DNA from: Patescibacteria group bacterium
GTDB lineage: Bacteria > Patescibacteriota > Patescibacteriia > UBA9934
Assembly (NCBI GenBank): GCA_041661425.1
Contig: JBAZUI010000003.1
Span: forward strand, 10,446 to 74,445
DNA: 64,000 bases
Reading direction: 5' to 3'
The position numbers and the translations under genes are program-made. The first letter of the stretch is position 1. The number at the start of each line of letters is the position of its first letter. Shown here one piece after another: positions 56,618-62,457 of the stretch. A model generated the notes under the pieces. It had not been told where the DNA came from and searched no databases. It saw only the letters and a list, made by a program, of their open reading frames with translations.

Positions 56618-57882
56618 AAGATCGAATCGCAAGCATTCATGCGCAAGAAATTTTGGACTCGCGTGGAAATCCAACGGTTTATGTGACCGTGGAATTGCGT
56701 GGAGGCGTGCATGGCCATGCATCGGTTCCCTCTGGTGCTTCGACTGGAATTCATGAAGCACTTGAGCTTCGCGATGGCGACTCAAAGCGCTATCGGGGTA
56801 AAGGCGTACAAAAAGCTGTCCATCACGTGAATACGAAAATCGCGAAAGCGCTTGAGGGGAAAATCATTTTTGATCTCCCGGGCATTGATACGACAATGCG
56901 TTTACTCGATGGCACTGCTAATAAACATATCCTTGGCGCCAATGCCATTCTTGGCGTTTCCATGGCTTGCGCTCATGCGGGGGCCCGGCGCGCAAAACGT
57001 CCGCTTTATGCGTATCTTCGGGCCATCTATGGCATTGGATATAAAAAGTACACGCTCCCAACTCCGTTCTTGAATGTGTTTAATGGCGGAGCACATGCGG
57101 ATACTAATCTCGACATGCAGGAATTTATTATTATCCCGCATGCCATGAAAACATTTTCGAAAAAGTTGCAAGCCGGATCGGAGATCTATCATGCGCTTGG
57201 CGATATCCTAAAAAAAGATCATCTTGATACAGATAAGGGCGATGAAGGAGGGTATGCGCCTCATGTGGGAAAAACAGAATCTGCGCTTGAATATCTATCG
57301 AAAGCAACAAAGAAAGCTGGATATCGACTCGGAAAAGATATTGGATTTGGCATTGATATTGCGGCCAGTGAGTTTTTTGATCACAAGACTGAAAAATATA
57401 TTCTCAAAACCGATCATCGACGTTTGAGCGCCAAGGATATGATGGAATTGCTTGCAAGTTGGCAGAAGAAGTATCCATTGATGTCGATTGAAGATCCGCT
57501 CGATCAGGATGCCTGGGAAGATTGGGCTATCATCACAAAACAATTAGGAAAGAAGATGCTGATTGTGGGAGATGATTTTTTTGTGACAAATCCAGAACGC
57601 ATTCAAGAAGGAATTACAAAAAAATGCGCCAATGCGGTACTTGTGAAAATGAATCAAATCGGAACGCTCTCGGAAACAATGGAAGCGATTGATTTAGCGC
57701 AAAAACATGGATACAAAGTTGTGATCTCGCATCGATCTGGAGAAACATCAGATACCACGATTGCGGATTTGGCCGTTGCTGTGAATGCTGAATATCTTAA
57801 ATCCGGCGCCCCTTCACGATCAGAGCGTTTGGCAAAATACAATCGAGTTCTCGAAATCGAAGAAGAGTTACTTGGCCTCTAG
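56614..57882 (+). CDS. eno: Enolase
   Basis: IHAQEILDSRGNPTV... Overlaps the pgk stop. Confidence 0.95.
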   Translation: MKDRIASIHAQEILDSRGNPTVYVTVELRGGVHGHASVPSGASTGIHEALELRDGDSKRYRGKGVQKAVHHVNTKIAKALEGKIIFDLPGIDTTMRLLDGTANKHILGANAILGVSMACAHAGARRAKRPLYAYLRAIYGIGYKKYTLPTPFLNVFNGGAHADTNLDMQEFIIIPHAMKTFSKKLQAGSEIYHALGDILKKDHLDTDKGDEGGYAPHVGKTESALEYLSKATKKAGYRLGKDIGFGIDIAASEFFDHKTEKYILKTDHRRLSAKDMMELLASWQKKYPLMSIEDPLDQDAWEDWAIITKQLGKKMLIVGDDFFVTNPERIQEGITKKCANAVLVKMNQIGTLSETMEAIDLAQKHGYKVVISHRSGETSDTTIADLAVAVNAEYLKSGAPSRSERLAKYNRVLEIEEELLGL

Positions 57883-59145
57883 AAGTTCGTGATCATAATG
57901 CCAACCGCTCACGCGCTCGGCCATAAAGGTACCGAGGGCATTGGCGCGTTGCCAAATATGTCCGCCATAACGCTCTTGTAGACGATCGAGGGCTTGAATG
58001 GTTGCCAGTATTTTTTGGTCTTTCTTGAAAAGGGAAGTGGGGATTGGGATGTGCTCAAGTCCGGAAATTGAAACACCAAGAAGACGCACGGAACAATGTG
58101 GATCACGAATATCCTCAAGAATTTGCCAAGCGCATTTATAGATATCAAGGCCATTCCAGAGTGGGATATGAAGACGACGAATCGTCGAAACGCCGGTAAA
58201 ATCCGCATAACGCGCAAAAACAGCAATGGTCCCGCCAACGGCTTTGGCACGCCGAAGACGCCAGGAAACCTTATCGCAAAGGGCGAGAAGATTGGTTTGT
58301 AATTCAATTTCCGTGTCAAGATTTTCCGGGAAGGTATAGGAGTGACCAATTGATTTTTCCGGTTGCGGTTCTGCAAGAATCGCATTCGATCCTTTGCCTC
58401 GTGCGGCATCGTAGAGGAAATTTCCATACGATTTGAAATGCATGAGAAGGATCGGTTTTGGTGTGGCGCGCAAATCCGCAATAGATTCAATACTCAGATT
58501 TTTAAGGCGTTTTGCAATGCGATGACCAATGCCGCAAATATCCTCGAGTTTCCTTGTGAGGACGAAATCCTCGACTTCGTGTGGCTGAACAACAGTGAGT
58601 CCATTTGGTTTTACCGATTCGCCTGCGAGTTTTGCAATGAGTTTATTGGGCCCGATCCCAATCGAAGCCGTGCAATATTCCCCGCAGATTTTTTTGATAT
58701 CGTCACGGATCACTTGAGCGAGCATAATCGCTCCAAAATAATCTTTTGCTGAGACGGTGATATCAGCAAAAGCTTCATCGGCACTAAATTGTTCTACCGC
58801 ATCGGTATGCTCGCGAAGAATGGCGAGAAAACGTTTTGTGATTTCCGCGTATTTGCGAGGATCGCCTGGAATAATTTGAAGATCGGGAACTATTTGTTTT
58901 GCCTCAAATGTTGACATGGCGGTTTTGACGCCAAGTTTTTTTGCTTCGCGTGAGGCCGTGGTGATGACGGATCGTTCAAACCGAAATTGCGAAACATCAT
59001 GAGCGCGACCGTCCATGGAAGCACGACCTTTGCCCGCGATGCCAATCGCCTTGCCACGCAAAAATGGATTCGCTTGTTGTTCAACAGAGGCAAAGAAAGA
59101 ATTGAAATCAACGTGAAGAATAATTGGCATATTTTCTGACGTCAT
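57868..59145 (-). CDS. dinB: Y-family DNA polymerase IV
   Basis: ILHVDFNSFFASVEQ catalytic motif. Confidence 0.85.
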   Translation of the reverse strand: MTSENMPIILHVDFNSFFASVEQQANPFLRGKAIGIAGKGRASMDGRAHDVSQFRFERSVITTASREAKKLGVKTAMSTFEAKQIVPDLQIIPGDPRKYAEITKRFLAILREHTDAVEQFSADEAFADITVSAKDYFGAIMLAQVIRDDIKKICGEYCTASIGIGPNKLIAKLAGESVKPNGLTVVQPHEVEDFVLTRKLEDICGIGHRIAKRLKNLSIESIADLRATPKPILLMHFKSYGNFLYDAARGKGSNAILAEPQPEKSIGHSYTFPENLDTEIELQTNLLALCDKVSWRLRRAKAVGGTIAVFARYADFTGVSTIRRLHIPLWNGLDIYKCAWQILEDIRDPHCSVRLLGVSISGLEHIPIPTSLFKKDQKILATIQALDRLQERYGGHIWQRANALGTFMAERVSGWHYDHELLEAK

Positions 59146-59172: not shown

Positions 59173-60063
59173 TTGATGAATTATTTTTATTCACAAGGGA
59201 CTCTTGGAATCGATGCTAAATTGTGTAATATGAGTTCATACACTCCCCATAATTTTTTTATGCTTACCAAAAATGATATAAAATTATTTCGTGGGGTGAT
59301 TCGCGAAGAGTTTCAAGCTGATACATTCAAGGATGGTGTGCGTGAGGTTCTTCATGATGAAATCCGTGGAGAATTTCAGGGTGATGCGTTTAAAGATGGC
59401 GTGCGAGAGATTCTCCATAACGAGATTGGCGAGGAATTTCAGGGTGAAACATTTAAGGACAGTATCCGTGAGGTTGTGAATCATGAAATTTGCGAAGAAT
59501 TTCAAGGTGAGACGTTCAAAAATAGCATCCGGGACGTCATCGACCATGAGATTCGTGGAGAGCTTCAGGGCGAAGCATTCAAGAACAGTATGCGGGAGGT
59601 TGTGAATAACGAGCTCCGTGGAGAACTCGGAGGTGAGACCTTTAAGGATAGTATTCGTGAGGCTGTGAATCATGAGATTCGTGGAGAGCTTCAGGGCGAA
59701 GCATTCAAGAACAGTATGCGGGGGGTTGTGAATAACGAGATTCACGAGGAGCTTCAGGCTGATTCGTTTAAGAATAGTGTGCGCGAAATTGTTAACGATG
59801 AGGTTGGTGAAGTTCTTGAGAATATCGTTGTCCCACAATTTGATGGCATCTATCGTGAAATGGACGAAATAAAGAGCAAAATAAGTGTTTTAGAGGACAC
59901 GGTGGTCACAAAAGACTATTTGGATGAAAGACTTATAAATTTTAAGGAAGAATTGAACCTCCCGGCGGTATGGGTCGCGAAGCAAGTCGAGCGACTTTCA
60001 CATATGCTCTATAAAGGAGGAATTTTAACTGCTGAACAGGTCGTAGAGATCAGGACGGAATAA
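59173..60063 (+). CDS. Hypothetical protein made of ten tandem 20-residue repeats (consensus IRGELQGEAFKNSMREVVNHE)
   Basis: 60-bp DNA periodicity from 59290 to 59830. Two 68-bp stretches are near-identical. Start codon choice is uncertain. Confidence 0.5.
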   Translation: MMNYFYSQGTLGIDAKLCNMSSYTPHNFFMLTKNDIKLFRGVIREEFQADTFKDGVREVLHDEIRGEFQGDAFKDGVREILHNEIGEEFQGETFKDSIREVVNHEICEEFQGETFKNSIRDVIDHEIRGELQGEAFKNSMREVVNNELRGELGGETFKDSIREAVNHEIRGELQGEAFKNSMRGVVNNEIHEELQADSFKNSVREIVNDEVGEVLENIVVPQFDGIYREMDEIKSKISVLEDTVVTKDYLDERLINFKEELNLPAVWVAKQVERLSHMLYKGGILTAEQVVEIRTE

Positions 60064-60509
60064 GGATCTCTCTTTTTGCACAAATCAATCGCTATACAAC
60101 TCGACCAGACGCCATTCAAGAGTCTCGGAATCCAGTCGGAGTTTCATGAAATTGGTGTTATCGGAGACAGAAAAATAGAAAATTCTCTTTTGACCTTCGC
60201 GTGTGCTGTGAACGAGATTGAGCTGTTGGAGTGCATAGGTGTGCTGGCCCCAACGGACATGCGTTGGGCGCACGCGATTTTGTGCAAATTGAACGAGGAC
60301 GTCCACAGGGTCATTGAGAATTTCATGCATATTAAGAAAGGTGAAGGGTGTGGAGCAGGCGATGAATTTGTTGCTTAAAACGACGACGACTCACACGAAC
60401 CCGAAGGTGTTTTTGCCAATTGCGAAGAGTACGATCTTCGGCAAGTGTGTAGCCGAGTGTAATTTTGTAGTATCGAAGTGCTGTTTCTGACATAAAAAAA
60501 TTATTTAGG

Positions 60510-60550
60510 AATAAAAAGCGACGCTGGAGGAGGAGACCAGCGTCGCGTTA
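60510..60550 (-). terminator. Rho-independent terminator downstream of lexA
   Basis: GCGACGCTGG-n-CCAGCGTCGC 10-bp stem followed by a T-run on the minus strand. Confidence 0.6.
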
Positions 60551-60672
60551 TGTTCTAGATATAATCCAGAACACTGACTATGGAGGCCGGATCCCTTCGG
60601 CTTCCTCGCCAGAGCAAATGCTAGGATCGTATGCATTTTGCTCTAACGAAGAGTGATTTGGGATCCGGACAA

Positions 60673-61299
60673 TTATGAATGAAATTTTCTAATCACGGCT
60701 CGAACGACTCCTTGGATATTGATGTCGCCTTTGATGATAATCGGTTGCATGGTGCTATTGGCCGGTTGTAAACGAATGTGTTTTCCTTCTCGATAGAAGC
60801 GTTTGAGTGTGGCATAGGCATTGTCGAGCAGGGCCACGACGATATCACCATTTTTTGGTGAAGGATTTCTTTCGATGACCACATAGTCTCCATCAAAGAT
60901 GCCATCTTCGATCATGGACCGACCCTTTACGCGAAGCACATAGGAGTTTCCTGGATTCACGACGAAATCCGTTGGGACGGCGATGGCTTCATTTTCTTCA
61001 ACGGCTTCGATTGGTTCGCCAGCTGTGATGAGTCCGGCAAGTGGAAGAATGATACTCATGGACGAAAGTTCTGTAACCTCGGTGAGTTCAATGGATCGTG
61101 CCGCGCCATCTTCGCCTGTATTGATGACGCCCTTTTCGCAAAGCGCTTGAACATGTTCGTGCACGGTCGACGGAGAGGCGAGCCCCATGGATTTTGCGAT
61201 CTCGCGATAAGAGGGGGTATAGCCATGTTCGCGAATGAATTGCTCGATGCAATTCAGAACTTCGCGTTGCTTTTTTGTAAGAGGCGGGAGTGATGTCAT
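60673..61299 (-). CDS. lexA: LexA repressor (S24 peptidase)
   Basis: Start at MTSLPPLTKKQREVL. wHTH. Cleavage/catalytic motifs GRSM and KRF. Confidence 0.85.
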   Translation of the reverse strand: MTSLPPLTKKQREVLNCIEQFIREHGYTPSYREIAKSMGLASPSTVHEHVQALCEKGVINTGEDGAARSIELTEVTELSSMSIILPLAGLITAGEPIEAVEENEAIAVPTDFVVNPGNSYVLRVKGRSMIEDGIFDGDYVVIERNPSPKNGDIVVALLDNAYATLKRFYREGKHIRLQPANSTMQPIIIKGDINIQGVVRAVIRKFHS

Positions 61300-61301
61300 A
61301 T

Positions 61302-61345
61302 CGTTCGCTTTCTGTTCCCATTTTGACCCGAACAGAAAACGAACG
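61302..61345. promoter_or_regulatory. Candidate LexA operator: inverted pair of GTTC-N7-GTTC / GAAC-N7-GAAC boxes between lexA and the divergent gene
   Basis: CGTTCGCTTTCTGTTC-12 bp-GAACAGAAAACGAACG. 16-bp arms are reverse complements except one base. Confidence 0.5.
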
Positions 61346-61419
61346 CAAGAGCGGGTGTGGATATCTTTTCTTTTTTGCGTGAATGTCATTATTATGTTAA
61401 TTTGTGTCCTCGATCGCCT

Positions 61420-62457
61420 ATGAAAAAAACCGTTGAAATTCCACTGCCAGGGCATCCCGATAAGGTCTGCGATCTTATTGTTGATTCGATTTTGGATGAA
61501 TATCTTCGCCGTGATGCAAAAAGTCTTGTTGATATCCAGGCTTTGGGGTCGCATGGCATGCTCATGATTGGCGGCACGGTTGAATCTCAAGCGGATTTTG
61601 ATTGCGGAGAATTGGCAAAATCAGTGTATGCGCGCCTTGGGTATGAGGATCAAATTGAACCATTCGTGAACATCAAAAGCACAGGACATCCGGAAGAAAA
61701 AAACGATGCTCACAGCGTAAGTCACGGCACCTCGATTGTGCATGGGTATGCCAGCCGTGAGACGCGTGAAATGCTTCCGCGCGTATTGGTTTACGCAAAT
61801 GCTTTAGCGCAACGCATTGATGATTTACGTCGAACCTCAGAACATTTCCATTGGATGAATCCGGACGGCAAAGTCCAGCTCACGATGGACGGTCATAAAT
61901 TTACGAGTGTGGTCGCCCATGTCCAGCATAAAAAAGAAATGGATGTCGCCCGCGTTCAGCAAGCCCTTCTGGAGCAGGTGATTATTCCCGTCTTGGGAAC
62001 GGACGAAGGAGTAAAAATTTTTGTGAATACGGCCGGGAAATTTTTCGTGGGTGGATTTGAAGGGAGCTCCGGCGCTTCGGGACGCCGATTACTTTCCGAT
62101 ACCTATGGAAGCCTTCTTCCAAGTGGCGGCGCTTATATGGCGGGTCGTGATCCGAGCCATCCCAGCCGTGCCGGAGCCTATATGGCTCGATATGTTGCAA
62201 AGAATTTGGTTCACGAAGGAGTGGCGGGAAATATTTTTCTCACGGTTGCTTACACCATTGGACAGGCAGAACCGATTTACATTGAGGCGCGATCTGGCGA
62301 TGGCAAAGATCTTTCCGAGATAGTGAAAAAACGATTTGATTTTCGTCCGGATGCGATTGTCGAGCGCTTGCATTTGCGTGAACCGTTGTATGCGCGCGTG
62401 GTGGCGTTTGGCCAGTTTGGGCGAGTTGGAATGCCGTGGGAAGCACTTGAGGAATAG
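61420..62457 (+). CDS. metK: S-adenosylmethionine synthetase-like protein (divergent MetK)
   Basis: GHPDKVCD N-terminal motif is conserved. The GGGAFSGKD loop is degenerate (GGAYMAGRD). Confidence 0.5.
   Translation: MKKTVEIPLPGHPDKVCDLIVDSILDEYLRRDAKSLVDIQALGSHGMLMIGGTVESQADFDCGELAKSVYARLGYEDQIEPFVNIKSTGHPEEKNDAHSVSHGTSIVHGYASRETREMLPRVLVYANALAQRIDDLRRTSEHFHWMNPDGKVQLTMDGHKFTSVVAHVQHKKEMDVARVQQALLEQVIIPVLGTDEGVKIFVNTAGKFFVGGFEGSSGASGRRLLSDTYGSLLPSGGAYMAGRDPSHPSRAGAYMARYVAKNLVHEGVAGNIFLTVAYTIGQAEPIYIEARSGDGKDLSEIVKKRFDFRPDAIVERLHLREPLYARVVAFGQFGRVGMPWEALEE

Follow-up and report, generated by a model that had tools for sequence, protein, structure and literature searches.

The lexA gene in a 64-kb stretch of Patescibacteria DNA (the whole of which is called the window below) is preceded by two inverted GTTC-N7-GTTC repeats at positions 61302-61345. 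We predict that this site is the autoregulatory LexA operator of lexA and that it is built into the core promoter of the gene, a reading to which we assign a probability of about 0.85. An initial annotation of the window had proposed such an operator, and the proposal is supported by the identity of the LexA protein, by conservation of the repeat upstream of lexA in relatives and by further copies at recA, dinB and orf81, the last a small gene that accompanies dinB. The features of the site are as follows.

60673-61299, minus strand: lexA, 208 aa; TIGR00498 at 199 bits against a cut-off of 111, with PF01726 and PF00717
61302-61317: proximal arm, nearer the lexA start, GTTC-N7-GTTC; plus strand CGTTCGCTTTCTGTTC, lexA sense (minus strand) GAACAGAAAGCGAACG
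61318-61329: gap between the arms, 12 nt; plus strand CCATTTTGACCC
61330-61345: distal arm; plus strand GAACAGAAAACGAACG, lexA sense (minus strand) CGTTCGTTTTCTGTTC

The initial annotation had described two inverted boxes separated by 12 bp, with a GTTC core 3 nt from the lexA start codon, and both the sequence and a repeat finder agree with this description. The program returned a single inverted repeat at this position, with 16-nt arms that are 94% complementary and 12 nt apart. The lexA gene is on the minus strand, with 2 nt between its ATG (61299-61297) and the 16-mer arm and 3 nt between the ATG and the GTTC core. Exact copies of the 16-mer arm occur twice in the 64-kb window, both times at the lexA site, and none of 30 block shuffles yielded inverted repeats of comparable quality. 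The bare GTTC-N7-GTTC pattern is not enriched in the window (5 observed versus 3.2 expected), and its remaining three matches all fall within coding sequence. The significance of the lexA site comes from its conservation across relatives and not from window statistics alone.

Conservation of the repeat at lexA and at other SOS genes

The window lexA encodes a complete LexA protein, with both the winged helix-turn-helix LexA_DNA_bind domain and the Peptidase_S24 domain, and its Ala-Gly cleavage site, Ser and Lys align with those of E. coli and Thermotoga LexA. An automatic gene call on a Logan contig makes lexA 238 aa long, so that it runs through the operator site. The ATG at 61299 is nevertheless supported, because the protein is 100% identical to a 208-aa NCBI product from a Patescibacteria metagenome-assembled genome (MAG), its homologues are 206-210 aa long and the TIGR00498 family model begins at residue 6 of the 208-aa form. 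The next 120 LexA relatives (76-85% identity) belong to Uhrbacteria, which are placed within the Patescibacteria/Parcubacteria group, or to other Patescibacteria. Given the LexA identity and these 120 relatives, the host is a Uhrbacteria-like Patescibacteria MAG, as far as its sequence tells, and not an alphaproteobacterium. Exact-protein look-ups meant to extend the contig past the window returned nothing for LexA or for a 248-aa ORF, and for orf81 gave a single Logan contig of 2.8 kb that covers the same region.

To follow the site through related genomes, we scanned one genome per species and obtained 80 lexA loci with 65-95% protein identity. The 160 nt located 5' of each lexA, together with those of the window, gave 81 upstream regions. 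GTTC-N7-GTTC was present, with at most one mismatch, in 76 of the 81 regions and GAAC-N7-GAAC, which is the proximal arm in the lexA sense, in 63; both arms occurred together in 62. Of the five regions that seem to lack the box, four have it at a greater distance upstream, beyond an inserted small gene that resembles those for 23S-rRNA intervening-sequence proteins. Exact GTTC-N7-GTTC sites numbered 176 in 917 kb of loci, against about 27 expected from composition, and 127 of the 176 lie no more than 200 nt upstream of lexA. Absence of the motif upstream of lexA in relatives was one of the two conditions set beforehand under which the annotation would have been refuted, and the motif is retained there.

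Conservation centres on the GTTC cores (2.0 bits of information) and on a spacing of exactly N7, while the flanks hold 0.0-1.2 bits. The distal arm has the consensus TTGC-GTTCGGTTTTTGTTCG-G over 70 sites, and the repeat as a whole extends to YGTTCG-N5-TGTTCG with a T-rich centre. The full consensus for lexA relatives reads TTATCC[A/C]CA-N9-TTGC-GTTCGGTTTTTGTTCG-G(N)TATAAT-AC-GAACATAAnnCGAACA...ATG.

Genes for 23S-rRNA intervening-sequence proteins, which are small and of the four-helix-bundle type, stand between the LexA-box promoter and lexA in loci L029, L040, L056, L070 and L071. Another lies between orf81 and dinB in L013 (7326-7709), and this is the one open reading frame (ORF) of the group that was checked against PF05635.

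The LexA-operator reading is supported because the repeat is also found in recA promoters and upstream of dinB and orf81. A single repeat was present in the recA promoter of all five Patescibacteria contigs examined, namely L122 and four independently chosen loci. The recA promoters follow the pattern TTGACA-GT[T/A]CG..TTTTGTTCGG-TAnnnT, which places the repeat in the same register as the distal arm at lexA. The four further recA loci read TTGACA-GTTCGCTTTTTGTTCGG-TAGGCT, TTGACA-GTTCGGTATTTGTTCGG-TAGGCT, TTGACA-GTACGGTTTTTGTTCGG-TATGCT and TTGACA-GTACGGCTTTTGTTCGG-TAACAT. The nearest relatives of the L122 RecA (PF00154) are labelled Saccharimonadia or Parcubacteria. The dinB gene of L070 has its own copy (GTTCTATTTTTGTTC followed by TATAAC), and the homologue of orf81, the partner gene of dinB, is preceded by the repeat in L130. 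Scan and fetched loci thus place the motif at canonical SOS genes other than lexA, where its absence had been the other refuting condition, and its occurrence at lexA, recA, dinB and orf81 supports the suggestion that it is the LexA recognition motif of this lineage.

We also scanned metagenome contigs with a pattern that combines the arm with the -10 hexamer (GTTCGNTTTNTGTTCG-N2-3-TATNAT), which returned 120 contigs. Sixty-five of these matches precede a lexA gene whose product is 39-82% identical to the window LexA. One match stands before recA (L122) and one before the orf81 homologue (L130). The genes behind other matches are of the DinB superfamily or encode a Dam methylase or Fic/RhuM proteins, and at least four matches lie inside the coding sequence of one conserved gene and look like chance occurrences.

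Several contigs, including L081, L083, L089, L132, L167, L168, L191, L192 and L198, have a G+C content of about 0.54 and are not from Patescibacteria. In this GC-richer group, TTGAC-GTTCGCTTTTTGTTCG-CC-TATGAT precedes a 206-aa ORF without a Pfam family. In L168 this ORF is followed by an 836-aa family-B DNA polymerase and an ArdC-like gene and, further on, by an SSB-like gene, the last two assigned by eye. The arrangement on these contigs has the appearance of a polymerase module under LexA control, carried by a mobile element in another phylum.

In four related Uhrbacteria, a tRNA-Asp gene is immediately preceded by GTTC-N7-GTTC and then TATAAT, at about 3.5 kb from lexA:

L013, 9627-9641, minus strand: repeat at tRNA-Asp
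L015, 9516-9530, minus strand: repeat at tRNA-Asp
L016, 6719-6733, minus strand: repeat at tRNA-Asp
L017, 9702-9716, minus strand: repeat at tRNA-Asp

At these loci ARAGORN reported the anticodon ATC in two cases and GTC in one, and found no tRNA in L013.

Predicted promoter layout, binding unit and alternative readings

Alignment with relatives points to the 12-bp gap between the arms as the -10 region of the lexA promoter. The hexamer at this position is TATAAT, TATGAT or CATAAT in relatives, TAAAAT in a relative with 95% identity (L001) and CAAAAT in the window. TTGC or TTGT directly precedes the distal arm in 51-59 of 70 relatives, and the frame TTG..(17)..TATAAT is conserved. On this basis, the distal arm would occupy the spacer between the -35 and -10 hexamers, and the proximal arm would lie over the predicted transcription start and a short leader. 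The promoter elements assigned in this way and the neighbouring features are listed below.

61320-61325, minus strand: predicted -10 hexamer CAAAAT, within the 12-bp gap; 4/6 match, assigned from relatives
61343-61348, minus strand: predicted -35 hexamer TTGCGT; it overlaps the distal arm at its end, and 17 bp separate it from the -10; 3/6 match, assigned in the same way
61356-61364, minus strand: DnaA-box-like 9-mer ATATCCACA, 8/9 match to TTATCCACA
61420-62457, plus strand: metK, divergent neighbour with three S-AdoMet synthetase domains

The binding unit appears from the aligned sites to be one direct repeat, a YGTTCG hexamer at an 11-bp period. This follows because N7 is fixed, the gap between the arms is variable and promoters with a single arm exist. 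In the 81 upstream regions, GTTC-Nx-GTTC occurred 72 times at x = 7 and no more than three times at any other x, and GAAC-Nx-GAAC occurred 51 times at x = 7. The inter-arm gap is 11 or 12 nt in most loci and 10, 17, 18 or 21 nt elsewhere. Single-arm lexA promoters are found in several sub-clades (L039, L041-L045, L050 and L068-L080). From the spacing, each direct repeat most likely binds one LexA dimer. In promoters with two units, the distance from centre to centre is 26-27 bp, or about 2.5 helical turns, which would place the units on opposite faces of the DNA and would favour two independently bound dimers over one bridging complex.

The initial annotation had emphasized a near-perfect 44-bp dyad, and this is accurate for the window, where 15 of 16 positions are symmetric. 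It does not extend to relatives, in which the dyad is not conserved and the arms do not covary: N7 sequences of the two arms agree at 4.15 positions within a locus versus 4.14 between shuffled loci, and 1011 of 2000 shuffles reach the observed value. Because covariation is lacking, the dyad symmetry of the window is incidental. An alternative is that LexA recognizes a palindrome that bridges the arms, either an inner TGTTC-N12-GAACA resembling a stretched Verrucomicrobia or Gram-positive site, or the full dyad of 44 bp with a single oligomer on it, in which case the direct repeats would not count as distinct sites. Such a palindrome would account for the symmetry in the window, GTTC-N11/12-GAACA is found again in 53 upstream regions, and palindromic GTTC/GAAC is the commonest type of LexA motif (PMC4951493). 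We nonetheless consider it improbable, since the distance between arms varies while that within an arm does not, since only 20 of the 65 independent metagenome lexA promoters have a second arm, and since recA, dinB and several lexA sub-clades carry a lone direct repeat with no partner. The Gram-positive Cheo box, GAAC-N4-GTTC, was rejected on the spacing spectrum, being nearly absent with two occurrences in the 81 regions.

Another regulator, such as a metK factor or a protein of the neighbouring TTATCCACA box, could in principle read the repeats. The intergenic region is shared with a divergent metK in 41 of the 80 relatives, the DnaA-box-like 9-mer forms a second conserved element 7 bp from the -35, and the repeat stands before tRNA-Asp in four relatives. 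Yet the repeats stay with lexA where metK is not adjacent, the recA, dinB and orf81 promoters that share them make up the classical SOS set, and the motif is of a known LexA type, all of which makes a different regulator very unlikely. There is next to no chance that the inverted repeat acts as a nucleic-acid hairpin, either in RNA, as an attenuator or terminator between metK and lexA, or in DNA, as a cruciform. A stable stem could form from the 16-nt arms, and weak hairpin-type Rfam matches cover the dyad (E = 0.24 and 1, far below thresholds), but no compensatory changes link the arms, the conserved -10 hexamer sits in the loop, no T-run follows the stem, many homologous sites have one arm only and, given the predicted promoters, neither the lexA nor the metK transcript would span both arms.

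In the predicted operator, the distal unit (61330-61345) would fill the spacer between TTGCGT and CAAAAT, and the proximal unit (61302-61317) would cover the predicted start site and a leader of about 14 nt, such that LexA bound at these units would keep RNA polymerase off the lexA promoter. Upon DNA damage, RecA would stimulate self-cleavage of LexA, for which the Ala-Gly, Ser and Lys residues are present, and the repressor would be released. The lexA promoter of many relatives probably serves the genes further downstream as well, namely a small ORF (sORF), orf81 and dinB. LexA binding, its stoichiometry of one dimer per repeat and the positions of the promoter and of the transcription start are inferred from sequence.

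Several observations count against the operator reading. The recA evidence was drawn from other Patescibacteria classes, with Saccharimonadia or Parcubacteria labels, and not from the window genome. Neither recA nor uvrA is in the 64-kb window, where dinB is the one other SOS gene, and a search of the roughly 300 nt upstream of the window dinB (57868-59145), with up to three mismatches allowed, found no box, in agreement with the initial annotation, which had noted no box immediately upstream of this gene. The tRNA-Asp gene would be an unexpected member of a LexA regulon, for which it is a candidate from its upstream sequence. In addition, the promoter hexamers of the window are weak (3/6 for the -35 and 4/6 for the -10), a consensus promoter scan of the window reported none at lexA because they fall below its threshold, and the stoichiometry of one dimer per repeat is judged from spacing alone.

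Taken as predicted, the site is an ordinary autoregulatory SOS operator of an already described motif type, and as such no surprise to specialists. Its value lies in the fact that a LexA motif and promoter layout could be set from sequence for a lineage that is uncultured and has a reduced genome; scanning for YGTTCG-N5-TGTTCG inside promoters should make it possible to predict the SOS regulon in MAGs of this kind. Added value may lie in three further features for which we found no description in the literature, namely a DnaA-box-like element specific to lexA, a structured region 3' of lexA and the sORF-orf81-dinB cluster.

The DnaA-box-like element and the lexA 3' flank

The 9-mer at 61356-61364 lies upstream of two -35 hexamers, 7 bp from the predicted one of lexA and 10 bp from a possible one of the divergent metK. 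Equivalents are found at loci L001-L067 and at many of L081-L200. Of the sites within one mismatch of TTATCCACA, 65 are identical to it and 22 have the form TTATCCCCA, with 15 further variants; the C found frequently at position 7 of the 9-mer is not known as a classical DnaA-box variant. The pattern TTATCC[A/C]CA occurs 84 times in the 917 kb of loci, and 66 of these occurrences are just upstream of lexA. TTATCCACA is the DnaA-box consensus (PMC8203912).

Both the position and the distribution of this element are restricted. Of 60 genome loci, 56 have 19-23 nt between the start of the 9-mer and the distal arm. In the metagenome set it is 21-24 nt from the arm, with minor classes at 33-36 and 41-43 nt; these lie about 11 and 21 nt further out, which suggests that the element may depend on helical phase. 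It is kept with or without metK as a neighbour, at distances to metK that range from 23 to 300 nt. The 9-mer is present in 42-44 of the 65 independent metagenome lexA promoters, and its presence among the 55 non-lexA matches is essentially confined to contigs that break off ahead of a lexA gene. The recA promoters of the five contigs lack it. No dnaA gene, oriC region or cluster of boxes was found in any of the fetched loci (1.7 Mb). We found no paper on a DnaA box at a lexA promoter.

Downstream of lexA, the window contains two putative RNA elements and the genes listed here.

60587-60668, minus strand: structured element, 82 nt, directly after the lexA stop; minimum free energy -43 kcal/mol
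60518-60546, minus strand: terminator-like hairpin, GCGACGCUGG / UCUCCUCCU / CCAGCGUCGC, with a T-run at 60513-60517
60332-60493, minus strand: sORF, 53 aa, arginine-rich; also called independently on a Logan contig
60085-60330, minus strand: orf81, 81 aa, no Pfam family; also called independently on a Logan contig
59173-60063, plus strand: repeat-rich ORF, 296 aa, between orf81 and dinB
57868-59145, minus strand: dinB, with IMS domains

The genes that come after lexA on its strand in relatives are the sORF (about 53 aa), orf81 and dinB, in that order. The sORF was found in 45 of the 81 loci, orf81 in 56 and dinB in 58. Because the sORF starts within 60 nt of the lexA stop in 18 loci, the gene order looks like a single lexA-sORF-orf81-dinB operon under the LexA-controlled promoter in relatives. 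The 296-aa ORF of the window interrupts this otherwise contiguous cluster; it consists of about ten tandem copies of a unit of approximately 22 aa (..EFQG[ED][AT]FK[DN]S[IVM]RE..), and its match to DUF3782 is weak and sub-threshold.

The sub-clade of the window has about 180 nt inserted after lexA, which hold the structured element and the terminator-like hairpin. The structured element consists of an outer helix, GAUCCC/GGGAUC, which is invariant, and inside it a hairpin of 15-20 bp whose sequence varies by species while its pairing is kept. The apical loop carries GAUCCY, a third copy that could form an alternative pairing with the 3' GGGAUC. RNAalifold on a MAFFT alignment recovered the invariant outer helix only, with the inner stems misaligned, and single-sequence folds were therefore used. 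Across the 1.7 Mb of loci, the DNA pattern of this element is nearly confined to the position immediately downstream of lexA, and an Rfam search with the element returned no family at E values up to 1. The loop of the terminator-like hairpin, CCUCCUCC, is C/U-rich and resembles an anti-Shine-Dalgarno sequence; it recurs in about 20 relatives on stems that differ. The hairpin (60513-60546) has a weak match to Rfam CcsR1, at 22 bits versus a gathering score of 65, and no Rfam family reached threshold over the lexA 3' flank (60513-60668). The hairpin could be a regulated terminator ahead of the translesion synthesis genes or a small RNA derived from the 3' untranslated region. Because this terminator-like hairpin follows lexA, read-through from the lexA promoter into dinB is uncertain in the window.

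Tentatively, and as a proposal that may well not hold, the Patescibacteria lexA promoter could be a composite control region. A lexA-specific DnaA box would let DnaA set the level of the SOS repressor, and the inverted operators around the -10, together with the 3' element bearing the CCUCCUCC loop, would further control read-through into sORF-orf81-dinB. If this were true, DnaA input at lexA would couple replication status to the SOS threshold in genomes that have very few regulators.

Elsewhere in the window, the regions at 38.4-41.9 kb and 49.1-52.3 kb have long overlapping ORFs on both strands with translations rich in Pro, Arg and Ala. Judged from these translations, the G+C content appears to be much above the 0.50 of the window, which suggests that the two regions are possibly foreign or mis-binned DNA.

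Comparison with known LexA systems

The initial annotation had called the site an SOS box of the alphaproteobacterial type, a name that fits the form of the motif and does not fit the lineage. GTTC-N7-GTTC is the LexA motif of Alphaproteobacteria such as Rhodobacter, Rhizobium and Caulobacter, and Acidobacterium capsulatum has acquired it by lateral transfer (PMC4951493, PMC8565304, PMC3323433). The Patescibacteria repeats share with this box the tetranucleotide, the 7-nt spacing, the direct orientation, the location in SOS promoters and the presence of more than one site at lexA. They differ in that the host and all close LexA homologues are Patescibacteria, in that LexA, judged by these homologues, is not of the alphaproteobacterial lineage and in the extended consensus with its T-rich centre, which is unlike the alphaproteobacterial box.

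As a lead only, the recognition-helix region of the window LexA (SPSTVHEHVQAL; GLASPSTVHEHVQAL) seems nearer to that of B. subtilis (GLASSSTVHGHLARL) than to that of S. meliloti (DLASKSGIHRLITAL). If a Gram-positive-like helix holds, then the same GTTC half-site would have been put to use again in a new geometry, and lexA would not have been acquired from Alphaproteobacteria. The reuse of one monomer half-site in different geometries by distant LexA proteins would bear on models of LexA-motif evolution.

A LexA motif of Patescibacteria was reportedly defined by comparative genomics and electrophoretic mobility shift assays in the 2017 work of Sanchez-Osuna, Barbe and Erill (Environ Microbiol 19:3465). 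In a later paper, this Patescibacteria SOS work is cited as a case of independent evolution of direct-repeat recognition by LexA (PMC7739468). The SOS network described there and the one considered here involve the same superphylum and the same regulator. Our literature search for LexA together with the candidate phyla radiation or Saccharibacteria returned nothing relevant.

The DnaA-box-like element also has a counterpart, in that the uvrB and recN promoters of E. coli are co-regulated by DnaA and LexA (PMC6015884; reviewed in PMC8203912). There, as here, a DnaA-box consensus stands beside LexA sites in one SOS promoter. DnaA binding at E. coli uvrB was demonstrated experimentally, whereas in Patescibacteria the gene is lexA itself and a single box at a fixed phase is known from its sequence.

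Multiple LexA sites are common at lexA promoters (PMC4951493). The two units in the window resemble those of lexA in E. coli and Verrucomicrobia (PMC4951493), where two operator units at the repressor's own promoter likewise provide for tight autoregulation. In those promoters the sites are adjacent palindromes 1-10 bp apart, whereas in the window two direct repeats face each other across the predicted -10.
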